In this document: positions 20,201-62,877 of the stretch, one piece after another | Numbering within the stretch: position 1 is the first letter of the stretch | How the letters are laid out: the number at the start of each line of letters is the position of its first letter | From: an uncultured Pseudomonadota bacterium | Lineage (GTDB): Bacteria; Pseudomonadota; Alphaproteobacteria; RF32; CAG-239 | Length of the DNA: 64,000 bases | Assembly (NCBI GenBank): GCA_902761535.1 | Contig: CACWKS010000002.1 | Span: 142,418-206,417 of the forward strand | Direction of reading: 5' to 3' | Translations under genes and position numbers: made by a program | The notes under the pieces: model-generated | Database searches by the model: none | What the model was told of the DNA's origin: nothing | The model's input: only the letters and a program-made list of their open reading frames with translations

Positions 20201-22000
20201 CTATTTTTGCTTTATAACTAAATCTTTAACTACAATCCCTATATATGTAGCATTTACTTTATCTATTTTATCAAGATACAAGTCGTTGGCGCTTTCTTTT
20301 GTCTCTTTCCGAATTTTTAATTTTATAGTATTATCTTTAGTAACTAAATTTTTATCAATTTCAAAAGTTATGTTGCGGAAATTTTTTTCAGAAATATCAC
20401 AAACAAATACATCACTACCATTGACATTAAATATGATTTTTATTTCTTCATCCGTCATTGTTTCAAATTTTAATTCCGCCCTTAAATTCGTTTGAGGTTT
20501 GGAAGCTAATTTGAAATTAAGCTCATCTACATAAATTTTATTAAGAACCTCCTCATAATAATCAGTCCAATTTAGAACATCTTTACCGGAAATTTTCTTT
20601 CCTAACGTATAGAGGTTATATTTCGTTTTATGCTCCGGTGGTGTTGTTAAAGATTCATAAAAGTCAGAATATGATATCAAATGATAATAAAAAGCGTTTC
20701 CCATTTTTTCAATCAATGTCTTACTTTCAGCAAAAATCGATCGTCCTAATCCGAAAGAGCGAGGAGATAATTTAATTTGTAATGCTTCTAAAATTGTCGG
20801 AGCTAAATCAAAAGTTGTAAACTGTTTATCTTGATTTATTGATAATCCTTGCGGCAGATTCAAAAAAACATTATAAATTCCGTGATTGGAATGATCTTTT
20901 TGGGATAATACTATAGGTATCTTATGATCCCCTAAAACAATAATAGTCGTATTTTCTGCAAAAGGTTGTTTTTTTAGCCAAGTTATAAAATCATAAACTG
21001 CTTTATCACTACACATAAAAGCATCACGTAAATCATTAAATTCAGCCTTACATGATTTATCTAAATGATAAAATCTTCCATGTGTATCAAGCGAAAATAA
21101 TGTCAACACAAAAGGTTTATTTTTAGCCATTTTTTGTAACTCTTTTTTTGCAGCTGTAAATAAAGCTCTATCATTCAAACCGTCAAAAGTTCCTTGATGT
21201 TGAGGCTGATTAAATTCCGGATATAATTTTTTTAACTCATCTTTTCCCAATACTTTTGTATAACCATGTGTTTTAGCAAAAATATCAGCATGGGTGTATT
21301 TAATATCAGCTGCCTTAATAATCTCGGTATGATAACCGTTGTGCTTTAATATTTCCGGAAAACATATCGCATTCGGCAAAAAATATTTTGAATATCTTAT
21401 ATCATTATTTTTACTCAAGCGATAGGGAATACCGCAATGCATAGCTGTCAAAGCGGTAATTGAAGCTGCGGTTAATCTTAGCTGATGATTATTTTTGCTG
21501 TGATTATTTTCATTTTGTAAAGATATTAAATTAGGTATAAGATTTTGCGAGTAATAGTTTTCATTGCTGAAATTTTGTTCAAAGCTTTCCATAATAATCA
21601 GAACCAAATTACGCTTTTTTTTCGGAAAGTTGAATTCAATCTCGGAGGGATTAACATACTCATCCTCATATAGCGTAGTTTTTTTAGTCATATAATATTG
21701 ATATTCGGCAAATCCTGAAAAATAAGCAATAAAAATCAAGTCAATTATAATAATCAAAACTTGTTGGTTAGAAGTTGTTTTCCATAAAATTAAAGGAAAT
21801 GCAATGGCAAAAAAAGATAACCCGATTATATAATCTTTTAATGAAATATTCTCTTCTATAACATCAGGAGTTAAACTGGTTATAACTTGTAAAATCTGTT
21901 CAAAAGAAACATAAGGATACAACCATTTAACATAAATCAGTATTGAGGTTAATAACAAACATATTCCAAGTAAAACAGCTAAAATCTTATCTGTTTTCAT
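20201..22000 (-). CDS. Sulfatase-family membrane phosphotransferase (LtaS/MdoB/OpgB-like)
   Basis: N-terminal transmembrane helices plus an extracytoplasmic alkaline-phosphatase-superfamily domain (MESFE, SLDTHGRF and VLGDH motifs). Confidence 0.7.
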   Translation of the reverse strand: MKTDKILAVLLGICLLLTSILIYVKWLYPYVSFEQILQVITSLTPDVIEENISLKDYIIGLSFFAIAFPLILWKTTSNQQVLIIIIDLIFIAYFSGFAEYQYYMTKKTTLYEDEYVNPSEIEFNFPKKKRNLVLIIMESFEQNFSNENYYSQNLIPNLISLQNENNHSKNNHQLRLTAASITALTAMHCGIPYRLSKNNDIRYSKYFLPNAICFPEILKHNGYHTEIIKAADIKYTHADIFAKTHGYTKVLGKDELKKLYPEFNQPQHQGTFDGLNDRALFTAAKKELQKMAKNKPFVLTLFSLDTHGRFYHLDKSCKAEFNDLRDAFMCSDKAVYDFITWLKKQPFAENTTIIVLGDHKIPIVLSQKDHSNHGIYNVFLNLPQGLSINQDKQFTTFDLAPTILEALQIKLSPRSFGLGRSIFAESKTLIEKMGNAFYYHLISYSDFYESLTTPPEHKTKYNLYTLGKKISGKDVLNWTDYYEEVLNKIYVDELNFKLASKPQTNLRAELKFETMTDEEIKIIFNVNGSDVFVCDISEKNFRNITFEIDKNLVTKDNTIKLKIRKETKESANDLYLDKIDKVNATYIGIVVKDLVIKQK

Positions 22001-22632
22001 AACAAAACCTCTTTAATTTTTTTAATTACCTCTGCAAACATTTCTTCGGTTAAAACTCCGGTATTAATATTATAGCGCGAAGTATGATAAGAATTAATCA
22101 TAATCAAATTATGTTTATCCAAATGATGTATGGCACCATGAGCAAATTTAAATGCTGATTTTTTATATCCCAAAACTCCCAACACCGCATTATGTGCAAC
22201 CGCACCCAAGGTCAAAATAACTTTGAGATTCGGCATTGCGGCAATTTCTTGAATTAAAAATTGTCCGCAGGTTTTAACTTCATCACCGGTAACTTTATTT
22301 TGCGGCGGCACGCAACGCACCGAGTTGGTGATTCTTACATTTATCAGCTTAAATCCGTCATCGGCTCTTTTGGCATAATTACCTTCGGCGAGTTTGAATT
22401 TTTTTAAAGCCGGATAAAGAATATCTCCTGCATAATCATTGGTGAAAGGCCTTCCGGTTTGATTAGCTCCGTGAAGTCCCGGTGCTAAACCTACTATCAA
22501 AACTTGTGCCGATAAATCCCCGAAAGAGGGTACTGGTGCATTGTAATAACTTGGAAATTTTTTCTTATTATCCGCACGAAATTCCAGCAAACGAGGACAA
22601 AGTGAACAATTTTTTTGTGGAGCACAATACAT
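21997..22632 (-). CDS. Uracil-DNA glycosylase family 4 (Fe-S type)
   Basis: N-terminal Cys motif CSLCPRL and the GLAPGLHGANQTGRPFTND motif. Confidence 0.8.
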   Translation of the reverse strand: MYCAPQKNCSLCPRLLEFRADNKKKFPSYYNAPVPSFGDLSAQVLIVGLAPGLHGANQTGRPFTNDYAGDILYPALKKFKLAEGNYAKRADDGFKLINVRITNSVRCVPPQNKVTGDEVKTCGQFLIQEIAAMPNLKVILTLGAVAHNAVLGVLGYKKSAFKFAHGAIHHLDKHNLIMINSYHTSRYNINTGVLTEEMFAEVIKKIKEVLL

Positions 22633-27450: not shown

Positions 27451-30400
27451 ATGAATAAAAATTTTTGGTTACTGTTGTTTTTTATTTTATGTTGCCCGGT
27501 ATTGACTTATGCCGGCATAAAAACGATTAATGATACGCCTTATGCCAGTGGCAATTCTGCGACGGTTTCATCCGGATCTTCCGATGATAATTCGTTATCT
27601 GCAAATTCCCCCAAGAGCCAAAATCTTCTTAATTCTTCCAATAACAGCAATGATTCGCAGTCTGATTCCCAAGCTGATGGGGACAGTGACGGAGATGGCG
27701 ATGGAAACGAAACTTATCCTGCCTGTTATTTTTCCGGTTGTGAAAATTATTCTTCTTGCCAATATTATGATATAAATAGTTTGTCTGTGGCAAGCAATTA
27801 TTGCAGTTGTGCCGCCAACAATACGAATATTGCCTTATGTGATTCGCAATTACATTATCACAGCACGGTAAATTACAGCGGCTATGCACGTGGTTTAGGG
27901 GTGAGTGCCGACAGTTCACTGACTTTAGTTTCTGGACAAAACAATTATTATTACCTTTCGAATGTAGATTATTTTTGTCCGGTTAAGTTAAATCTTGCAA
28001 CTTTGGGATATACTCTCAATCCTCTTTCCCAAACTTATTATACTGCAGCCCGTAGTCTGGATTGTGATTATGATTCATCAACCGGAGTAAATTTATTTAG
28101 TTACACAGGTATTAACTGCATTCGCCCCGGTTATGGCATCCGAGATGAACAAATAGTCAATCTTTGTATTTATGGGTGTGAAAACAATCCAAACCCTTAT
28201 GATGATATGTTAAATTATGAGAATCGCCCCAAAGGATTGCAGTTTTGTGACGCATTACGCAATCAACGAGATACATCATCTGCACGTAGTTTTTATTCAA
28301 TGGATAGTTATGATGATTTGCCCGCTGCCGCCTCAACCAAATATTATATGTATCGTCCCAATGTAGCCGCGGCTCCTGATGATTTTGATTATCAACTTGC
28401 TGAATGTGCTATCCGGTGCGGGGTGTCCGGAAATGCTGATATAACTCCTATTTGCCAAGGGTGGTATTATTTGCAAAATTGCAGTTCTTTCACTGCAGCG
28501 GAAGAAGCGGCCGGTTATTATATTTCTCCGCTATACAATTCCTATGCTGAAGCTGTTGCCGCGGCTTCACAAATTTCCTCATTTGACATTTGTTACAATT
28601 TTGATTACATATATCGCAAATCAACCTTTATTCGTTGCGGAATCAAACATAGTGCCGACGCAACCAACGGTGTTTATTCTGAAACCGAATGTCGTACCAA
28701 CAACGGCGTTTGTTCTGATACAGAAGGCGACAATTATACTTGCGGTGGCGAAACCTATTGCAAACGCTGTGTTTGTCAAAGCGGATTGTATACATTAGCC
28801 GAATGGTGTGCCGCCAATAATATCACCGAAGATTGCGATACCGAACATTATAAGGGGCAGGGGAACGGATGTAACTATGACGACACCAGCAGCGACTTGA
28901 GCGGTGTTAAATATGCCTCTTGGATATTAGATCCTGATAATCCCGATAATGTTTGTCAGCCGGAAGGGCAATATGTGGCATTAGAGGACATTTCCGCAGC
29001 GACTGTTGACGAGTTACACAACACTTATGGTCCTTCTGCCCAAATAAGCAAATGTATATCCGACAACACTATGAAATGGCAGATTACCTGCAGCAGCGAC
29101 TATGCATATATTTGCGGCATTGTTGATACTCCGAGCAATTGGTGCACCCATGGACATGATTCTTCCACCACCATGCGCAGTGAGGCGGCTTCTTCATCTC
29201 CTCACAAATATTGCACCAGCGGAACGCTCAGCGGCATTTGCGGAGAATCGATTATAATCTCAAACGGCTCGGGAAGCAGTTTAATCCCTGCCTCTTATGA
29301 TTTGAGAATTTACGAAACGGAATCGCCAGAGCAGTGTTATAACAGGTATGGACGTGCGGCCTCGGTTCAGCCCTGTATTTCTATTGATAATTACGGCTCC
29401 AAATACAATTGCTACTATGATTTGCGAGAATACATTTATTCCACAACCAATGATAACGGAGCGGTAGTCTGTCCGGTTCGCCATGATCTTACCGGAAATT
29501 ATATAGTTCTCAATGGGCAGAAGCGATGGGCGGAATGCAATTGTATGGGGCTTTACGATTACACCATTTACACATGTTCCGGCAACGCAACCGTTATGGG
29601 CAAGGCTTGCACTCAGAATTTATCAAATGTAAATTCATCAAATACGTTAATCAACAAATGGAAAGATAAAGTTCCATATGATCAGGTCAACAATCGCATT
29701 TTGGTAAATTCGGTTGACTTATATCCGTATTGCCAATGCGATGAACGCTTCAAATACACTTGTGATGATAATGAAAGAACGTCACCGCTACCTGACAGTG
29801 CTTATTGTCAAGTTGATGGACGCTATTATTATGAATCTTGTCAGTGTACCAAAGATAGCTTGCCGGATCATTGGTCGGATAATTATTTCAATTGCACTTC
29901 CGGCGCACAACCGACCGGTATCTGGAAAGAAGACGGATGCGGCGGCAAGATGTACCAGTGTTCCGATACCATAGTATGCACGTCCGAATATACTCAAACT
30001 TGCAACGGCACCGGACAAATTGGTGTCAGCGGTTATGGTTGCCAAGATGACGAGGGTGCGTATGTTAAATGGAAAAAGTGTCAGTGCGATACTGCCGGCG
30101 GATGGCATACTTGTTTAGAGGATAATCAAAGCGGTGTAGGTGATCCCTGCATTTCCGGAAATGTTAATTATTATCAGTCTTGCTCATGTCCGTCAGGTTG
30201 GGCAACTTGCGATGACGAGCATATACCGGATTCTTCGGTGCAATCATGTCAAACTGACGATGGGATAATTGTCTATGCCTCTTGCGGCTGTAATAGTAAT
30301 TACAGCGAGTGTAGCGGCAACGGACAGGTTGGAGACACCTCATCGGGCATGTGTACATTAAGCGGCGGCACTACTGTTTATGAAAATTGCATCTGCAAGA

Positions 30401-33102
30401 GTGAGTATGACAAAACCTGTCAAGCTGATTCCTCCAATCACATCCGCGGTGATGACAGCGACGTATGCACCATATCCGGTTCTTCCGGTGAAACCGAAAA
30501 TTATTACAAGAGTTGCCGGTGTGAAGATGGCTATATTTTGACCTGCAGCGCTTCAGATCATTTGGTACCGAAAGACTCGGCCGATTATTGCCAAACTGCC
30601 TCCGGTGAAACCATGTATTATAACGAGTGCGAATGTGCATCCGGATATGATAAAACTTGTGAAGGTCAAACTCCGGCGGATATTAATGATTATTGTTCGC
30701 TTAACGGTGTAAGTTATTATACGGCTTGCACCGGATGTGATGCAGCCAGCGGTTGGATTATCTGCAGCGGAGCCAATCAAATTGGTGACGGACAGACTTG
30801 CACCTTCGACGAAACCACATATTACCAGTCTTGTATATGTCCTTCCGGTTGGACGGTTTGTGACGAAGACCATCAGCCTGATTTATCGGCACAGTCTTGC
30901 CAAACCAGCAGCGGAACCACCTATTACGAAAGTTGCATTTGCAACAGCAGTTATACCGAGTGCGGCGGCAATGGTCAGGTTGGCGACACCTCATCGGGCA
31001 TGTGTGTTATTGATGATGACACCACGGTTTATGAAAGATGTATCTGCAACAGCGAGTATAATCTGACCTGTCAAGCTGATTCCGGCAATCATATCCACGG
31101 CGATGCCGATGACGTATGCTCCATATCCGGTTCTTCCGGTGAACCCGAAAATTATTACAAAACTTGCCAATGCGACGATGGCTATACTTTGAGTTGCAGT
31201 GCTTCAGAACACTTAATTCCGAAAGATGCGGCAGATTATTGTCAAATTGTTATGGATGGAGCAATCCTCTACAACGAATGTCAGTGTGCTTCCGGCTACA
31301 CTTTGACTTGCAGTGACACGGACCATTTAGCTCCGAAAGACGATAGTGATTATTGCCAAACCGCTTCAGGCGAGACCAAGTATTACAACGAGTGTGAATG
31401 TGCTTCCGGATATGACAAAACCTGTTCGGCTGCTGACGGCTTATCTCCGGTTGATAGCAGTGACTATTGCTCGCTTAACGACGTAAGTTATTACACGGCT
31501 TGTACTTGTGATACTTCCGAGGGGTGGGTTATTTGCGACAATAATCAAATCGGCAATGGACCTGTTTGCACCTCCGGCGGCACCGATTATTATCAGTCTT
31601 GCTCTTGTCCGGAAGGATGGGTTACTTGTAACGGCGACCACCAAAGCGGCAACGAACCGGCTTGTATTTCCGGCGGCACCAGCTATTATCAGTCTTGCTC
31701 TTGTCCGGCGGGGTGGGTTGCCTGCGGAACTAACCAAATCGGAAACGGAACGCCTTGCGTATTGGGCGAAACCGAGTATTACCAGTCTTGCTCTTGTCCT
31801 TCCGACTGGACAATCTGTACCGATAACAAGGTCGGCGATCCGTCGTTAGGTTCTTGCACCATTGGCGGCACCACTGTTTATGAAAATTGTATTTGCCCAT
31901 CTCACTGGATTACTTGCGAAACTAACCAAAACGGGGTAGGAGAGGTTTGCACCTCCGGAGGAATTGATTATTATTCGTCTTGTATATGCCCCATTGATTG
32001 GACGGCATGTTCCGGCAATCACATCATTGGTGATCCGTCATCCGGTGCTTGTGCCATCAACGGCTCCACTGTTTATGAAAGTTGTGCTTGCGATTCCGGC
32101 TATACCGAAAACTGCTTAAATCAAGCTCCGGTTGATGAAAATGATTATTGCTCGCTCAACGGTGTAAGTTATTATACCGCTTGCACCGATTGTGGTGATG
32201 TAGTTAAGAGGTACGATTGCGGAGAGCGCGACGCAGGTCCGATTAACTGTATTCAAAGTTATTGGGATGGAACTATACAGACAACTTACGCTTCTTGCGA
32301 TTGCTCAATACCGGAGATATATGATGGTCGTAGAAACACTGAGGCAATTATCAGAGAGACTCCCCGTGGTGAATTTGCAGCTGATGTCGCTTATCAATAT
32401 CATCCTTCAAATCTTTCTCTATTGGATAATAATTTCGGTATTGGCCGTTGGTATCTTCCTGCTTATGGAGAAATGTATCAAATGGTTAATGTTATAGATA
32501 CCGTTAATTCAGGAATTTCAGCCGTATCCGGCGAAGTGATGTATCCAGATATATCGTATTGGAGCTCATCTGAAGTCGATATGTGGTATAGTATCAAGGT
32601 TTCTAAACAAAATGTAACATATCATTATGTTGATGAACAAGAAAAAAGAATACCATGCATATTTCGCATAGTTACTCTCTTAGAAAACAAACTGCCGGCA
32701 ACTTCTTTATCTAATATTGCCGGTGCCGCCGTCGGCGATGTGGTCTATAGTGACCTGACTTATGACAGCTATACCAATCCTCATTCTGACAAAACTCCGG
32801 TCGGAGTGGTCTATTGGGTTTCCTCTGACAAATCTCGTGTGCGTATAGTTTCTCCTAATCAGCCCAAAATGCTGCCCTGGGGTTGGGGTGGATTTTATAC
32901 TTACGTGAAGCTGGAGGATGTACCCACTGAAGTAGGTGAATGGGAAATGGAAAGTCAAATGTGTTGGGACGATAATCAAAATGAATATGAGTGTTATGAG
33001 GTTGATGGTGGTATAGATATCACAGGTATTAAGAATTTAGGATCGAACATGTTTAACGACGGTATAGGTTGTACTTCTACGGAAATTCTTGACAATCTTT
33101 AG
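27451..33102 (+). CDS. Giant secreted cysteine-rich tandem-repeat protein (1883 aa) with more than 30 EGF-like 4-Cys modules and a distinct C-terminal domain
   Basis: Signal peptide MNKNFWLLLFFILCCPVLTYA. A S/N/D-rich linker including DGDSDGDGDG. About 1100 aa of repeats of the form C-x6-11-YY-x2-C-x-C-x2-G-[WY]-x2-3-C. A Cys-poor C-terminal domain of about 300 aa. Confidence 0.85.
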   Translation: MNKNFWLLLFFILCCPVLTYAGIKTINDTPYASGNSATVSSGSSDDNSLSANSPKSQNLLNSSNNSNDSQSDSQADGDSDGDGDGNETYPACYFSGCENYSSCQYYDINSLSVASNYCSCAANNTNIALCDSQLHYHSTVNYSGYARGLGVSADSSLTLVSGQNNYYYLSNVDYFCPVKLNLATLGYTLNPLSQTYYTAARSLDCDYDSSTGVNLFSYTGINCIRPGYGIRDEQIVNLCIYGCENNPNPYDDMLNYENRPKGLQFCDALRNQRDTSSARSFYSMDSYDDLPAAASTKYYMYRPNVAAAPDDFDYQLAECAIRCGVSGNADITPICQGWYYLQNCSSFTAAEEAAGYYISPLYNSYAEAVAAASQISSFDICYNFDYIYRKSTFIRCGIKHSADATNGVYSETECRTNNGVCSDTEGDNYTCGGETYCKRCVCQSGLYTLAEWCAANNITEDCDTEHYKGQGNGCNYDDTSSDLSGVKYASWILDPDNPDNVCQPEGQYVALEDISAATVDELHNTYGPSAQISKCISDNTMKWQITCSSDYAYICGIVDTPSNWCTHGHDSSTTMRSEAASSSPHKYCTSGTLSGICGESIIISNGSGSSLIPASYDLRIYETESPEQCYNRYGRAASVQPCISIDNYGSKYNCYYDLREYIYSTTNDNGAVVCPVRHDLTGNYIVLNGQKRWAECNCMGLYDYTIYTCSGNATVMGKACTQNLSNVNSSNTLINKWKDKVPYDQVNNRILVNSVDLYPYCQCDERFKYTCDDNERTSPLPDSAYCQVDGRYYYESCQCTKDSLPDHWSDNYFNCTSGAQPTGIWKEDGCGGKMYQCSDTIVCTSEYTQTCNGTGQIGVSGYGCQDDEGAYVKWKKCQCDTAGGWHTCLEDNQSGVGDPCISGNVNYYQSCSCPSGWATCDDEHIPDSSVQSCQTDDGIIVYASCGCNSNYSECSGNGQVGDTSSGMCTLSGGTTVYENCICKSEYDKTCQADSSNHIRGDDSDVCTISGSSGETENYYKSCRCEDGYILTCSASDHLVPKDSADYCQTASGETMYYNECECASGYDKTCEGQTPADINDYCSLNGVSYYTACTGCDAASGWIICSGANQIGDGQTCTFDETTYYQSCICPSGWTVCDEDHQPDLSAQSCQTSSGTTYYESCICNSSYTECGGNGQVGDTSSGMCVIDDDTTVYERCICNSEYNLTCQADSGNHIHGDADDVCSISGSSGEPENYYKTCQCDDGYTLSCSASEHLIPKDAADYCQIVMDGAILYNECQCASGYTLTCSDTDHLAPKDDSDYCQTASGETKYYNECECASGYDKTCSAADGLSPVDSSDYCSLNDVSYYTACTCDTSEGWVICDNNQIGNGPVCTSGGTDYYQSCSCPEGWVTCNGDHQSGNEPACISGGTSYYQSCSCPAGWVACGTNQIGNGTPCVLGETEYYQSCSCPSDWTICTDNKVGDPSLGSCTIGGTTVYENCICPSHWITCETNQNGVGEVCTSGGIDYYSSCICPIDWTACSGNHIIGDPSSGACAINGSTVYESCACDSGYTENCLNQAPVDENDYCSLNGVSYYTACTDCGDVVKRYDCGERDAGPINCIQSYWDGTIQTTYASCDCSIPEIYDGRRNTEAIIRETPRGEFAADVAYQYHPSNLSLLDNNFGIGRWYLPAYGEMYQMVNVIDTVNSGISAVSGEVMYPDISYWSSSEVDMWYSIKVSKQNVTYHYVDEQEKRIPCIFRIVTLLENKLPATSLSNIAGAAVGDVVYSDLTYDSYTNPHSDKTPVGVVYWVSSDKSRVRIVSPNQPKMLPWGWGGFYTYVKLEDVPTEVGEWEMESQMCWDDNQNEYECYEVDGGIDITGIKNLGSNMFNDGIGCTSTEILDNL

Positions 33103-42295: not shown

Positions 42296-43363
42296 ATGTC
42301 GCGTGCGGAAGATATTTTTCAAAAGTTGGTATATTTCGGTGAAGATGCCCTTGATGAGTTTATCATTAATCATCAAAGCGAAGAGCTTTTTCTCGATTTT
42401 AAGCAGGCAGCCTCTGACGGCAAAAATTATAACACACTTCATAAAGATGATCGTCGCAATTTAGCCAAAGCCATATCCGGATTCGGTAATTCCGAAGGCG
42501 GAGTTGTCATTTGGGGAATCGAATGTTCGCGTGATGTTGAAATCGGCGATGTTGCCAAAGCTAAGGTCAAAGTTAAAAATGTTCACCGGTTTTTGAGCTG
42601 GTTGGAAAATGCCATTTCCGGTTGCACAATTCCCAGTCACAACAAGGTTCGCAACCATGTTATCAGCGTTGACGAGGCCGGTGACGGTTATGTTGCTACC
42701 TATATTCCCAAAAGCGATGTTGCCCCCTTAATGACTTCGAGTAATCCTGCGATATATATTCGCTCCGGCTCAAATAATGTTCCGGCACCTTACGCGGTAA
42801 TTGCCGGAATGTTCGGGCGTTATCCTCAACCGAATATTGAAATAAAAGTTGTTGATAAAAAAATTGAAGCCTTATCAAATCAGGATGAAGATATTTTGTA
42901 TCCCAACAGTATTGATAATCCCCCCGAACAATATGTCAAAATTTCATTTTCAATCAACGGCGAAAATCACTCTAATGTTATTGCCCGAGAGATGTTTTTA
43001 TCTGCCAATGTTATTAATGATGGCGGCGAATATAATAAAGTGCGCTTTTCTAATTATAATCAAATGGAAGCAATCCCCGGTATTGAAGGGCAGTTAAACA
43101 TTATCACTCGCCCCGAGTTGAGGTTGCCTCCTCGTGGAACGATTCGTTTCTGCACCTGTGAGATTATTTTATCTCCTTATGCCGAAGATGATTTTCAGCT
43201 TGAGGGAGTTATCGGAGCTAATATGGCCATGCCGCGCGATTTTCGTATTTATATTCCTAAAAATCGTCTAAGGTCTTTTGTTGCTAAAGTTATTCGCGGG
43301 GAAGAAGATTATAATATGATTATGAACGAATTTTTCCAAGACTTTTTCCGTGGAGAGTTTTAA
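42296..43363 (+). CDS. Schlafen-like AlbA_2-domain protein with an unknown C-terminal half
   Basis: EELFLDFKQAAS...AISGFGNSEGGVVIWGIE matches the AlbA_2 (PF04326-type) core. The stop TAA directly abuts the rnhA ATG. Confidence 0.55.
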   Translation: MSRAEDIFQKLVYFGEDALDEFIINHQSEELFLDFKQAASDGKNYNTLHKDDRRNLAKAISGFGNSEGGVVIWGIECSRDVEIGDVAKAKVKVKNVHRFLSWLENAISGCTIPSHNKVRNHVISVDEAGDGYVATYIPKSDVAPLMTSSNPAIYIRSGSNNVPAPYAVIAGMFGRYPQPNIEIKVVDKKIEALSNQDEDILYPNSIDNPPEQYVKISFSINGENHSNVIAREMFLSANVINDGGEYNKVRFSNYNQMEAIPGIEGQLNIITRPELRLPPRGTIRFCTCEIILSPYAEDDFQLEGVIGANMAMPRDFRIYIPKNRLRSFVAKVIRGEEDYNMIMNEFFQDFFRGEF

Positions 43364-60697: not shown

Positions 60698-60782
60698 AAT
60701 ATCAACAACTCCTTTTTAATTTCTTTTGGCGCTATCATATAATAAATTTTGCAATAAAAAACAATTTTTTTAAAAAAATCTA

Positions 60783-60811
60783 TTGACTGCGGAAAAATTT
60801 AATGTATATAT
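60783..60811 (+). promoter_or_regulatory. Candidate sigma70 promoter for the tRNA-Cys/tRNA-Asn pair
   Basis: TTGACT, then a 16-17 nt spacer, then TATATAT. It lies about 35 nt upstream of tRNA-Cys. Confidence 0.45.
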
Positions 60812-60844: not shown

Positions 60845-60919
60845 GGCCGGTTGGCAGAGTGGCTCATGCAGAGGACTGCAAATCCTTGTACATCGGTTCA
60901 ATTCCGGTACCGGCCTCCA
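60845..60919 (+). tRNA. tRNA-Cys (anticodon GCA), CCA encoded
   Basis: Cloverleaf read by eye. Acceptor ggccggt/accggcc. Anticodon loop ct-GCA-aa. T-arm ggttcaattcc. Coordinates are +/-1. Confidence 0.8.
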
Positions 60920-60933
60920 GATTTTTACCGTAT

Positions 60934-61008
60934 TCCGGCTTAGCTCAGCGGTAGAGCAATCGGCTGTTAACCGATTGGTCGCCTGTTCGAATCAGGCAGC
61001 CGGAGCCA
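60934..61008 (+). tRNA. tRNA-Asn (anticodon GTT), CCA encoded
   Basis: Acceptor tccggct/agccgga. D-arm agctcagcggtagagc. Anticodon loop ct-GTT-aa. T-arm cctgttcgaatcagg. Confidence 0.8.
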
Positions 61009-61041
61009 ATAAAAAAATACTCACCCTTGTGGTGAGTATTT
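61009..61041 (+). terminator. Rho-independent terminator after tRNA-Asn
   Basis: tactcacc-cttg-tggtgagta hairpin followed by a T7 run. Confidence 0.7.
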
Positions 61042-61074
61042 TTTTATGTCCCGTCTATCTGATGCGGATAGGCG

Positions 61075-61195
61075 AGCAAAGGGAGCCTGTTTGACCGGAG
61101 GTCGGCTTTTGTATAAGTAAAAGCCGGACGAACGGCGGCTTTAGCCCATCAGGCAGCCGTCCTTATTTTACTCACCCTTGTGGTATTTTTTATGC
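61075..61195 (+). repeat. Degenerate second copy of the tRNA-Asn T-arm / 3' end / terminator, with a ~60-bp hairpin element inserted at the T-loop
   Basis: gcctgtt + [tgaccggaggtcggcttttgtataagtaaaagccggacgaacggcggctttagccc] + atcaggcagccg-tcc + ttattttactcacccttgtggtattttt. The element core is a hairpin (gtcggcttttg...aaaagccggac). Confidence 0.6.
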
Positions 61196-61558
61196 TATTT
61201 ACTTGCTTGTTTTATTGTAAAAACACAATTAACACACAGAATAAAGCTAGTCAATTTGATATTTTAATATTATTGTAATAATACAATATATGCATTCAAT
61301 TATTACCGCCAATATTGAGAATATCTTAAATCCCTTGAATAATACCTTAAATCAAGGTATGCAGTATGCTCAAAATACTTTAATCAATGTAAAAAACGAT
61401 GCCGTACAATTACCTTAGCGAAGGAGCCGGTGCTGTAAATAATTATCTTAATAATCTTGTAAAAAATCAAAATGGACGATACTATATCAATTACGATGGA
61501 ATATCCGATAATAGATTATCGGATATGTTTAAACGGATTGAAACAAGGTTGCGTAATT

Positions 61559-62191
61559 TTGAAAAATAAACTTTTTTTAATATTGTTTACAGTCTTTTCT
61601 TGCGGTAAAGTTTACGCTTTGCCGCAAGATTGGCCATGTAAGGATTTTGTGCTTAATGAGTACCAAAGAATAGAAAATGGTGAGTTTACCATAAATAGCA
61701 TATACCGCGGGCAAGATAATGACTATGCTTTGGAAGTAAATATGTATTGGCAAGCGGAAAAGGGAATTGCCGATTGTGGAACATCCGGTTGTTTAGGAAC
61801 GATTAAAAATACCAAAACCGGAAAAGTGGAAAGTTTAAGGTTCTTTTGCGAAATTTTAGAAGATAAAAAATATGACAAAGCTAAGTGTTATATCGGCGGT
61901 ATTTATGAATATATTTTTAATTCGGATGAAAAAGGAAATTATATTGTTCATTATTGTCCGGATGATATGCAAAAAACTTTGCGCTTTAATAAAAGCAATT
62001 GCGATAAATGCCATTGTACAATGTATAAGTATGATAGAAAGATAAAGGATAAAAACAGTCATTATGAAATGGCTTGTAAAAAAGAGGAAAACAAAGCACA
62101 TTGTTTTAATTATTACGAATATGAAGTTTGGCGTAATTTTGAAAATGCTGATAATGACTATCAAAATTGTGTAGGACTAGATTTTTATTAG
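61559..62191 (+). CDS. Secreted cysteine-rich hypothetical protein
   Basis: The ORF track starts at 61472; the likely start is a TTG at about 61559, giving signal peptide LKNKLFLILFTVFSCGKVYA. The mature part has 14 Cys, including CDKCHC. Confidence 0.5.
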   Translation: MKNKLFLILFTVFSCGKVYALPQDWPCKDFVLNEYQRIENGEFTINSIYRGQDNDYALEVNMYWQAEKGIADCGTSGCLGTIKNTKTGKVESLRFFCEILEDKKYDKAKCYIGGIYEYIFNSDEKGNYIVHYCPDDMQKTLRFNKSNCDKCHCTMYKYDRKIKDKNSHYEMACKKEENKAHCFNYYEYEVWRNFENADNDYQNCVGLDFY

Positions 62192-62262
62192 CTGAATATT
62201 CTAAGAGTGCTCAACATAAAGCAGCCCCGCAAATTGTAAACAAAAACGGTATAGACAGTTAA

Positions 62263-62395
62263 ACAATTGGTCGCCTGTTTGACTGGAGGTCGGCTTTTGC
62301 GGCTGTAAAAGCCGGACGAACGGCGGCTTTATCCCGTCCGGTAGCCGGAGCCAATAAAAAAATACTCACCCTTGTGGTGAGTATTTTTTTAGTCG
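62263..62395 (+). repeat. Third copy of the tRNA-Asn 3' half (intact acceptor end and terminator), interrupted at the same T-loop position by the same hairpin element
   Basis: ttggtcgcctgtt + [tgactggaggtcggcttttgcggctgtaaaagccggacgaacggcggctttatcccgtccggt] + agccggagccaataaaaaaatactcacccttgtggtgagtattttttt. The segment after the insertion is identical to the 3' end of the real tRNA-Asn plus its terminator. Confidence 0.65.
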
Positions 62396-62877
62396 TCGTA
62401 AGACGGAATGTGTTTTACCAGAAATTCCGGAGACCATACGCCGGTATACCAACCTTTTTTGTAATAAAAGGTAATCACCTTTAGATGACCTTCGTCGTCG
62501 TGGATTTTCTTATCCAACGATTTAAGGCTGAAATACACAGCCATATACCCAACAGCCGCGACAACACACATCGCAAGCAAGATCATGCAAGGAATCATGT
62601 TATCTTGCACCATCTGCAAAAAGGCGTAGATCAAACCCAAAACAACAAGAAACATCAAAATTATGGCACTTTCCCATGCCTTATGCATGCGGTCTTGGTG
62701 CTTGACATAGGCTTTTGCCGTCTCCTCATCTTCGGCAAAGATAACAAAAACCATTCGGCTGAAAAAACCGAATCTCGCCGTTATTACACCATTAAGTCCT
62801 GCCTCATCGGGGCTCACATTAAACTGACGAGAAAAGATACGTATTGCCTTCTCTCTTAATTCTTCATTATTTTTCAT
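62389..62877 (-). CDS. Hypothetical membrane protein (two central transmembrane helices)
   Basis: 162-aa ORF with two hydrophobic helices at residues 85-130. Its stop lies next to the bidirectional terminator in the repeat above. Confidence 0.45.
   Translation of the reverse strand: MKNNEELREKAIRIFSRQFNVSPDEAGLNGVITARFGFFSRMVFVIFAEDEETAKAYVKHQDRMHKAWESAIILMFLVVLGLIYAFLQMVQDNMIPCMILLAMCVVAAVGYMAVYFSLKSLDKKIHDDEGHLKVITFYYKKGWYTGVWSPEFLVKHIPSYDD

Follow-up and report, generated by a model that had tools for sequence, protein, structure and literature searches.

Hairpin inserts split partial tRNA-Asn copies at a strain-variable genomic-island hotspot of uncultured Alphaproteobacteria

A tRNA-Asn gene in a 64,000-nucleotide stretch of chromosome from an uncultured alphaproteobacterium (contig CACWKS010000002.1, positions 142,418 to 206,417; this whole stretch is called the window below) is followed by two extra copies of its own 3′ half. 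Each copy, named A and B here, is interrupted in its T-loop by a hairpin-forming insert, and a small islet of cargo lies between them. Comparison with related strains reveals that A and B form part of a clade-specific array. The array is built of composite units of approximately 150 nt, and its composition and cargo vary among strains. The locus is an unannotated hotspot for genomic islands at which no integrase is seen, and it is neither a set of decaying scars nor the target of a dispersed jumping element. We tentatively favor the view that the inserts are modules that fold as single strands, are maintained by selection, and have a putative function in recombination or as RNAs.

The original prediction, which was based on the window by itself, described two extra copies of the tRNA-Asn 3′ half that share a T-loop insert, and tRNA gene detection, repeat comparison and a covariance model all indicate that these copies are real. 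Specifically, A and B have a common block of 75 nt in which 65 positions are identical (61085-61159 versus 62273-62347), and the 3′ end of B together with its terminator is identical to that of the true tRNA at 53 of 55 positions (62337-62391 versus 60992-61046). Across the 64 kb of the window, the 21-mer AAAAGCCGGACGAACGGCGGC is present in exactly two places, compared with 0.01 occurrences expected by chance. A covariance model of the units that carry the same insert (type 1, as defined below), with B left out of the training set, finds B with E = 2e-13 and finds nothing else in the window. Neither copy is recognized as a tRNA by ARAGORN or by Rfam model RF00005, even at E ≤ 10, and these searches report only the genes at 60845-60919 and 60934-61008.

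In both copies, the center of the T-loop is replaced by the same insert of 56-57 nt, which is flanked by gcctgTT on one side and (A)ATcaggc on the other. The core of the insert is a 12-bp hairpin of the form GGTCGGCTTTTG-loop-TAAAAGCCGGAC in which the loop is variable (coordinates in Table 1). The predicted number of copies stands as given, but their extents do not. Copy B reaches further in the 5′ direction, where positions 62247-62272 hold a relic of the D-loop and anticodon arm. Likewise, the 30 nt that follow the tRNA-Asn terminator are not a plain spacer but an inverted copy of tRNA sequence that belongs to copy A, and the terminator at the far end of A is truncated.

Related loci (designated L004, L007 and so on) were fetched by scanning for the core motif and through homologues of RpiB, and approximately 12 metagenome loci were compared. 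If X denotes the 3′ 30 nt of tRNA-Asn, tcgcctgttcgaatcaggcagccggagcca, then each unit reads in the direction of the tRNA as an inverted copy X′ (for example, atgtcccgtctatctgatgcggacaggcga), a short linker, X5′ (gcctgTT), the insert, X3′ and an intrinsic terminator, wherein X3′ consists of AATcaggc plus the 3′ strand of the acceptor stem, with or without CCA. The inverted copy was first spotted through a palindrome-driven Rfam hit, and it is significant relative to shuffled sequences in all six cases tested (p ≤ 0.004). For copy A, the reverse complement of X′ aligns locally to the 3′ part of the tRNA with a score of 26, compared with 10.8 ± 2.2 for shuffles (p = 0.0002). We also considered this post-terminator segment as a degenerate tRNA 5′ half that includes a D-arm, and dropped the idea; the segment is the reverse complement of the 3′ part. 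Because X′ is an inverted tRNA copy, each terminator is centered in an imperfect palindrome of approximately 110 nt, and X′ and X5′ form a further hairpin, P2, in which nine pairs are formed and 98.6% of the alignment cells are paired. Every unit has the orientation of the tRNA operon, and almost every one closes with a terminator composed of a stem and a T-run.

The insert is located after T54-T55 of the T-loop, and among the tRNA-Asn units its length is 56-79 nt. At least three mutually unrelated insert types are present, and individual strains carry between zero and three units. Type 1 is the insert found in A and B. Types 1′ and 1″ keep the type-1 flanks, whereas the 12-bp stem is exchanged for a different stem of the same length or for another hairpin (L007, L018, L037). 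Type 2 is an unrelated sequence of approximately 77 nt that is placed cleanly at TTCG^AAT. Smith-Waterman comparison against shuffled sequences revealed no homology among type 1, type 2 and an insert located at a tRNA-Met gene that is described below (p > 0.2). Two candidate features within the units were examined and rejected. An ATG follows each terminator, but by eye the resulting small reading frames are not conserved between L007 and L009. Similarly, a possible internal promoter in type 1 (TTGACC-15-TATAAG) has its -10-like hexamer in the variable loop, where it is not conserved.

The original prediction called for a comparison of this locus among related strains, in which the segment proves to be present or absent and the array to be variable rather than identical. 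In the window, the array consists of A (type 1), the islet and B. The order is type 1, type 2, islet and B in L004; type 1, type 2, type 1′ and islet in L007; and type 2, type 1 and type 2′ in L009. Locus L037 carries type 2 plus type 1″, L029 and L040 each carry a single type-1 unit, and L018 carries three units, an island of 9.2 kb, a tRNA 3′ relic and a type-2 unit. Only truncated relics are present in L025 and L035, and the outgroups L041 and L043 have the terminator and X′ only. The islet of the window is shared by L004 and L007 and is absent from L009, L018, L029, L037 and L040, such that the cargo at this position is a 1-kb islet, a 9-kb defense island or nothing at all. Direct repeats of the tRNA 3′ part flank both the islet, through A and B, and the L018 island, although the repeat is split after T54-T55 rather than forming a contiguous block of identity with the tRNA.

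Other observations likewise reveal how the array changes. Locus L004 is 99.7% identical to the window on the left of the array and 95.7% identical on the right, and therefore the array is a recombination break point. The truncated terminator of copy A also borders the islet in L004 and L007, where it is preceded by a type-2 or type-1′ unit, and copy A of the window is thus a deletion hybrid. Copy B changes much faster than the array units, also between conspecific strains, and may be a decaying member. Depending on the lineage, the terminator after the true tRNA is of the unit type or of an ancestral type. Finally, many independent assemblies break inside or just after tRNA-Asn, as would be expected where a repeat array differs between co-existing strains, and the array thus explains why metagenome assemblies end at this gene.

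The inserts are far more conserved than neutral sites. At four-fold degenerate sites of rpiB and glyA, L007 is 39-51% identical to L037, L029 and L040, which amounts to saturation. Nevertheless, the type-2 inserts of L007 and L037 are identical at 73 of 77 positions, and the type-1 inserts of L007 and L009 are identical at 55 of 56. In those units, divergence has instead affected the terminator and the 5′ half of X′. The type of terminator that follows tRNA-Asn also ends units in relatives, and the version in L037 differs by compensatory changes in the stem.

The structure of type-1 units was evaluated by placing a four-helix model (P1 through P4) on their alignment and by scoring hairpin changes across eight units. 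In this alignment, 95% of the cells are paired, and seven pairs have changed on both sides through at least three independent events, namely the stem swap of type 1′ and two replacements of G-C by A-U, one in L040 and one in P4 of L018. The covariation score of 0.232 exceeds that of shuffled alignments (0.135 ± 0.014), none of which reach it in 500 trials, and controls in which the structure was slid along the alignment score no higher than 0.087. Folding also favors one strand, given that the consensus energies for sense and antisense are -33.6 and -23.1 kcal/mol for type 1, and -35.5 and -30.4 kcal/mol for type 2. Many G.U pairs are invariant on the tRNA-sense strand, and the sense strand of unit A folds better than its shuffles (z = -2.7). 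Among canonical type-2 copies, substitutions are mostly in loops or are compatible with wobble pairing. Furthermore, the type-1 covariance model, over its full length, matches type-2 units, and therefore the architecture is shared by the two types.

The same arrangement recurs at two other tRNA genes. In another organism (L046:2987-3260, and also L045:1-90), a tRNA-Met(CAT) gene is followed by a terminator, an inverted copy, exact over its 13 nt, of the variable-loop and T-stem region, and a 3′ copy that is split after the TT of the T-loop by an insert of approximately 83 nt. Immediately downstream of this unit is an islet with MuF-family and Cys-rich genes that are homologous to those in the window. 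In L029 (15150-15490, minus strand), a tRNA-Phe gene is followed by a terminator, an inverted copy of 11 nt, approximately 190 nt of hairpin-rich DNA, and an exact copy of 21 nt that runs from the T-loop to CCA and precedes a second, different terminator. No such arrangement is present at tRNA-Met and tRNA-Pro of L047. That three tRNAs share a break after T54-T55 while their inserts are unrelated speaks for a site-directed process that acts on the T-loop, rather than for one mobile sequence. As a separate observation at the tRNA-Met locus, a second copy of the promoter and of the gene's first 24 nt lies approximately 230 nt upstream of the intact gene (L046:2760-2985), with a terminator-like hairpin and approximately 190 nt of GA-rich sequence between the copies.

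Recombination directed to the T-loop is a plausible origin of the split copies. In this scheme, recombination of tRNA-Asn-like sequences at the T-loop would create split copies. The strain comparison shows that units have then been amplified, lost and shuffled, and that islets have been gained, swapped and truncated between units, all without a local integrase. These changes could be driven by a trans-acting recombinase, or by homologous recombination in which the invariant tRNA and the repeats, both tandem and inverted, take part. The inserts would be retained by selection as cis-acting modules that are structured as single strands, and that might serve either as folded recombination sites of the islets or as small RNAs (sRNAs) produced by read-through of the tRNA operon. 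We lean, with due caution, toward a role as recombination modules of integrase-less islets. That the inserts are host sRNA genes expressed by read-through is possible but doubtful, and the two roles are not mutually exclusive. A more specific proposal, which we consider decidedly unlikely, is that the units constitute a new class of tRNA-derived modules in which X′ and the T-stem and acceptor strands would rebuild a mimic of the T-arm duplex on a folded single strand, with an interchangeable hairpin domain extruded from the T-loop.

Several observations count against selected modules of this kind. Covariation in type 2 is weak, with one pair changed on both sides, because type-2 sequences are nearly invariant, and helix P1, which joins the 5′ part of X′ with X3′, is not kept in L037. 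The type-1 structure was derived from the same sequences that were then used to evaluate it, and these sequences are few. Moreover, type-1 alleles are incongruent with the host tree, in that the first unit of L007 is nearer to the second unit of L009 than to copy A of the conspecific window, and therefore part of the conservation may reflect horizontal exchange rather than purifying selection. The units are also dispensable, since they have been lost or truncated in L025, L035, L041 and L043. A promoter scan upstream of the units yielded nothing convincing. With regard to recombination, Pfam searches of the 44 open reading frames (ORFs) of at least 150 amino acids in the window revealed no integrase, transposase or recombinase domain, and no recombinase domain is present in the L018 island or in precomputed Pfam lists for the flanks of eight other lineages. 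Thus, the integrase that the original prediction proposed to look for was found neither in the 64-kb window nor in the fetched flanks. Finally, the units are absent from phage and plasmid collections and from IMG/VR, and the 3′ end of tRNA-Asn is likewise absent there or yields chance matches in coding DNA.

How much of this anatomy could instead have accumulated through ordinary integration? Elements specific for tRNA-Asn, such as prophages, integrative and conjugative elements (ICEs) or satellites with a tyrosine integrase whose crossover is in the T-loop, might have inserted repeatedly and then undergone internal deletion. The units would be remnants of attL and attR, the inserts would be former attP arm DNA, and the integrase would be located elsewhere or lost, as in cis-mobilizable elements (CIMEs) or tycheposon remnants. 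Variable cargo between direct repeats of the tRNA 3′ end, the T-loop break point at three different tRNAs, and the exact 21-nt direct repeat from the T-loop that flanks a segment of approximately 250 bp at tRNA-Phe all agree with such a history. The presence of either a unit-type or an ancestral-type terminator after the real tRNA would follow if the tRNA 3′ end came with an element, and the tRNA-Met unit adjoins homologous cargo. Partial-tRNA arrays with degraded elements have indeed been documented in Prochlorococcus islands (bioRxiv 10.1101/2020.12.28.424599). However, a standard attR retains an intact T-arm, whereas the 5′ strand of the T-stem is separated here from the 3′ strand by 55-80 nt. 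No integrase is seen in more than eight lineages, and IMG/VR, phages and plasmids yielded no contig with a matching attP. Nor would remnants of double-stranded att sites be expected to retain compensated hairpins or a bias toward the sense strand, or to stay 95-98% identical across saturated divergence. Even outgroups devoid of units possess X′. We therefore regard accretion as somewhat unlikely. The proposal in the original prediction that att-like footprints had been left by integration and excision survives in part, because the locus is a strain-variable hotspot in which islets lie between tRNA 3′-end repeats and no integrase is present in the window or at related loci. It fails in regarding the repeats as passive scars, given that the inserts are conserved, the hairpins are compensated, and the units hold an inverted copy and their own terminator.

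The units might also be nothing other than host genes for structured sRNAs derived from tRNA-Asn, with an expanded T-loop, transcription by read-through, their own terminators and tandem amplification, in which case the islands would be incidental to the hotspot. The shared orientation of units and operon, the terminators kept by compensatory changes, the sense-specific structure with its many invariant G.U pairs, the folding of the unit A sense strand relative to shuffles, the loop-confined or wobble-compatible substitutions of type 2 and the strong sequence conservation all fit this idea. Set against it are the lack of an evident promoter and the presence of a good terminator before each unit, as well as patchy distribution and frequent truncation. 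Moreover, no Rfam family matches: a search of Rfam 15 with the window region and the L018 array, both at the gathering threshold and at E ≤ 10, returned only tRNAs, and the remaining hits are at chance level or palindrome-driven. The sRNA proposal leaves unexplained why unrelated inserts occupy the T-loops of copies of three tRNAs and why X′ exists, and it would render the homologous cargo beside the tRNA-Met unit a coincidence. We judge it unlikely. A related candidate, a permuted two-piece transfer-messenger RNA (tmRNA) of the alphaproteobacterial kind, was rejected; ARAGORN detects none, and the units have an interrupted T-arm and the acceptor of tRNA-Asn.

A neutral origin would invoke tandem duplications plus fold-back or template-switch replication errors that start from the terminator hairpin, to yield functionless and decaying debris. 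In the units, inverted and direct copies of the tRNA 3′ part are indeed nested about a terminator that is itself palindromic, X′ co-varies with a lineage-specific T-stem in L041 as quasipalindrome correction would yield, and copy B evolves rapidly between conspecific strains. We nonetheless disfavor this explanation as very improbable, since the inserts remain 95-98% identical despite saturated four-fold sites, changes in their hairpins are compensatory and preserve wobble pairs, and damaged units are deleted rather than slowly eroded (L025, L035).

The second suggestion in the original prediction, a single element resembling a miniature inverted-repeat transposable element (MITE) that inserts specifically into the tRNA-Asn T-loop, is largely refuted and retains hardly any credibility. 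In its favor, the type-1 insert is found at an identical T-loop position both in units that follow an X′ and in copy B, which derives from a fuller tRNA copy, and tRNA-like flanks accompany it wherever it is seen. Against it, that position is shared by at least three non-homologous inserts, types 1′ and 1″ keep their flanks while swapping a whole hairpin stem, the ends of the insert bear no visible terminal inverted repeats or target-site duplication (its hairpin lies internally), and no transposase was found. An exact-match scan found the type-1 core once in each of two related representative genomes of GTDB, both metagenome-assembled genomes (MAGs) and both at the tRNA-Asn locus, compared with two copies in the 64-kb window and none in IMG/VR. 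The many copies at sites without tRNA-like flanks that would have spoken against the original prediction did not appear either. In the core-motif scans, three of five hits among genome contigs and 11 of 12 hits among metagenome contigs were chance matches in unrelated coding DNA.

Genes for tRNAs are classic landing sites of genomic islands, and many such hotspots lack an integrase and operate by mechanisms that are unclear. The closest known kind of system is a tRNA-anchored island hotspot with partial-tRNA repeats and degraded, integrase-less elements. Examples include the tycheposon islands of Prochlorococcus, which are tRNA-linked and contain partial-tRNA repeats and degraded elements (bioRxiv 10.1101/2020.12.28.424599), the ssrA islands of Dehalococcoides (PMC3146451) and the asn-tDNA islands of Klebsiella (PMC4891358), which represent further hotspots at tRNA or tmRNA genes. 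As in these systems, variable cargo lies beside the tRNA gene between repeats of its 3′ part, older copies are pushed outward, and the elements are degraded and without integrase. In contrast to them, the T-loop here is split by conserved structured inserts, each unit has an inverted copy and a terminator, no integrase is present in the sampled lineages, and the repeats are constrained rather than decaying.

Other kinds of element also invite comparison. CIMEs and integrase-less hitchhiking islands, known from the ICESt literature on Streptococcus thermophilus, have att-like flanks and no recombination genes, and could move only through help in trans or by accretion. The islets described here are likewise flanked by att-like repeats and devoid of recombination genes, but their flanks are composite palindromic modules instead of simple att cores, and their att role, their excision and a helper element are hypothetical. 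Integron attC sites and attP(+) of phage CTX-phi are recombination sites that fold as single strands, with conserved stems, variable loops and strand specificity. The units resemble them in being imperfect, strand-specific palindromes in which X′ could pair with X5′ and X3′ to mimic a duplex target while the insert is extruded. Unlike those sites, the units reveal by eye no R″/R′ boxes (RYYYAAC/GTTRRRY) and no dif-like sequence, and no IntI is seen; here the notion of a folded site derives from anatomy. No convincing dif, attC or hammerhead motif was found in the units by eye. An array of attC sites lacking an integron integrase (CALIN) was specifically considered and rejected; GTTTGAC and GTTCGGA deviate by eye from GTTRRRY, adjacent units have no ORFs between them, and again no IntI is seen.

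Among RNAs, tmRNA, YrlA and the 3′ external transcribed spacer (3′-ETS) sRNAs of tRNA operons are structured molecules that are derived from tRNAs or linked to them. The units similarly join a tRNA-like T-stem and acceptor end, sometimes with CCA, to a structured domain within a tRNA-operon trailer that ends in an intrinsic terminator. However, they expand the T-loop rather than the anticodon-arm position, and most have a defective acceptor strand. MITEs, repetitive extragenic palindromes (REPs) and Rickettsia palindromic elements also are short, hairpin-forming and non-coding inserts, but the units described here occupy one locus per genome, comprise several unrelated sequences at one site, and have no terminal inverted repeats or target duplications.

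If the units did form the T-arm mimic proposed above, then they could be docking or recombination sites formed by folded single-stranded DNA, as with attC and the attP of CTX-phi, or guide-like RNAs, and integrase-less islets that encode toxins or defense functions would be captured and exchanged in this clade at tRNA-Asn, tRNA-Met and tRNA-Phe. Whether as recombination sites or as RNAs, functional modules would explain the exchange of small islets among uncultured gut Alphaproteobacteria and would add an unannotated family of RNA or DNA elements. What the locus provides is a concrete cis element, both conserved and structured, at a hotspot without an integrase. This element is made from the 3′ half of the tRNA itself, is present at three tRNAs and adjoins cargo of the defense and toxin type. 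Should the modules prove inert, the locus would still be a clear case of palindrome-driven remodeling around a tRNA terminator.

Table 1. Features of the tRNA-Asn locus, with positions numbered from the first nucleotide of the window.
Feature	Position	Strand	Basis or remarks
tRNA-Cys(GCA)	60845-60919	+	ARAGORN; Rfam RF00005, 56.8 bits; first gene of the operon
Intact tRNA-Asn(GTT)	60934-61008	+	ARAGORN; Rfam, 69.6 bits
Intrinsic terminator T: A-tract, stem tactcacc/ggtgagta, T-tract	61009-61047		Inverted repeat with 17-nt arms, 100% complementary
Copy A, entire	61046-61191		Extra copy of the tRNA-Asn 3′ half
X′ of copy A: inverted degenerate copy of tRNA-Asn variable-loop, T-arm and acceptor 3′ part	61046-61075	+	Alignment versus shuffles
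Linker gcaaaggga plus X5′ (T-stem 5′ strand gcctg plus TT)	61076-61091	+	X5′ pairs with the 3′ end of X′ (helix P2)
Type-1 insert of copy A: hairpin 61100-61129 (GGTCGGCTTTTG / tataag / TAAAAGCCGGAC), then small hairpin GGC-ttta-GCC	61092-61147	+	
X3′ of copy A: AT, T-stem 3′ strand caggc, degenerate acceptor agccgtcc; truncated terminator (tactcacccttgtggt-atttttt)	61148-61191	+	
Islet, 1.05 kb	61192-62246	+	Comparison with relatives
56-amino-acid ORF, 3′ stump of a MuF-family toxin-like gene	61399-61569	+	tblastn
Gene for Cys-rich secreted all-beta protein	61559-62191	+	TTG start; signal peptide; 12 Cys in the mature part
Copy B, entire	62247-62391		Extra copy of the tRNA-Asn 3′ half
5′ part of copy B: relic of tRNA-Asn D-loop and anticodon arm (cggtatagacagttaaacaattggtc), then X5′ gcctgtt	62247-62279	+	Direct repeat, 81% to 60959-60990
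Type-1 insert of copy B: hairpin 62288-62317, loop cggctg	62280-62336	+	Covariance-model match 62234-62356, E = 2.2e-13
X3′ of copy B: tccggt plus perfect agccggagcca; complete terminator	62337-62391	+	53/55 to tRNA end plus terminator

The islet of the window is a fragment of a module that is complete elsewhere. Its 56-amino-acid ORF matches the C-terminus of a 336-amino-acid protein of the PF04233 (Phage_Mu_F) family in L046, with 43% identity over 47 amino acids (tblastn, E = 8e-9). In L045 and L046, a homologue of the Cys-rich protein (53% identity) directly follows the Phage_Mu_F protein, with an overlapping start. Given the homology of the ORF to the C-terminus of the MuF protein and the adjacent Cys-rich gene, the islet therefore consists of the 3′ stump of the toxin-like gene plus its partner; the window retains approximately the last 47 codons of the upstream gene. 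The pair may represent a putative toxin and its putative immunity-type partner. The original prediction placed between the copies a gene for a secreted protein with 14 cysteines. The protein is indeed secreted and Cys-rich, although it has 13 cysteines when read from the probable TTG start at 61559, of which 12 remain after removal of the signal peptide. It matches no Pfam or NCBIfam family, and its relatives form 32 unnamed homologue clusters. An AlphaFold2 model is all-beta with a predicted local distance difference test (pLDDT) score of 83 and matches no fold in the PDB at E ≤ 0.001.

A further homologue of the Cys-rich protein is located in an islet that carries a gene for a Tlde1-domain effector. 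In L047 and L048 (2200-2360), this islet is 99% identical from position 2359 on, whereas the left flanks differ (BamE versus rpsI), and therefore the islet or its surroundings have moved. Repeats are present within the toxin-like modules themselves. An exact 15-nt repeat, GCGTAATTTTGAAAA, is found in the window at the end of the toxin stump (61551-61565, encoding …RLRNFEK) and near the end of the Cys-rich gene (62131-62145, encoding …WRNFEN…), and a similar pair of motifs is present in L046. The repeat may mark a point at which modules recombine and are swapped, or it may be coincidental. Also in L046 (5800-5865), approximately the first 21 codons of the MuF-domain gene (MSKLEDDLHQRIHGFRTVKR) are repeated after the Cys-rich gene, which fits the tandem partial duplications typical of polymorphic-toxin loci.

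The largest cargo is that of L018, whose rpiB and glyA genes have approximately 95-96% nucleotide identity to those of the window. Its island of 9.2 kb (L018:2557-11730) is situated between a type-2 unit and a tRNA 3′ relic, and is bounded by caggcagccgtc and aatcatgtatccggagcca. The island encodes UzuA of the Uzume system (E = 1e-46), a PDC-S26-like PD-(D/E)XK nuclease, a WYL/WCX regulator, a Cas4-like DUF2779 protein, an IetA-like AAA ATPase and an ankyrin protein.

The remainder of the window is ordinary chromosome, with genes for Rnf, FabD/F, Tgt, LepA, Mfd, RecG, MurF, NrdR, NusB and Def. The genes for GlyA and RpiB directly precede tRNA-Cys and tRNA-Asn, and a promoter-like sequence recognized by eye upstream of tRNA-Cys (TTGACT-17-TATATA, approximately 60775-60806) is conserved in all relatives. 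Near-identical contigs derive from rumen metagenomes. The closest species-representative genomes are the MAGs L007 (uncultured Alphaproteobacteria bacterium) and L009 (uncultured proteobacterium RUG10873), and the array-bearing clade comprises uncultured rumen and gut bacteria that are labeled Alphaproteobacteria in the source records.

Some neighboring genes border the array directly. A membrane protein of 162 amino acids (62389-62877, minus strand) adjoins it in the window and has no family assignment, and L018:1-1700 apparently contains two diverged copies of the corresponding region. In L009, L029, L040 and L018, a gene of the uracil-DNA glycosylase (UDG) superfamily abuts the end of the array; the sole gene of this superfamily found in the window is at 21997-22632. 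Further from the array, a plus-strand ORF of 1883 amino acids (27451-33102) has no Pfam match at E ≤ 1e-5, and a plus-strand gene at 42296-43363 encodes a 355-amino-acid protein with a Schlafen AlbA_2 domain (E = 3e-8), which is frequent in defense-related proteins or in regulatory proteins associated with ATPases. Lastly, RpiB in L007 is three codons shorter than that of the window (…LDN* versus …LDNQGE*, L007:3222-3232), a minor strain difference.

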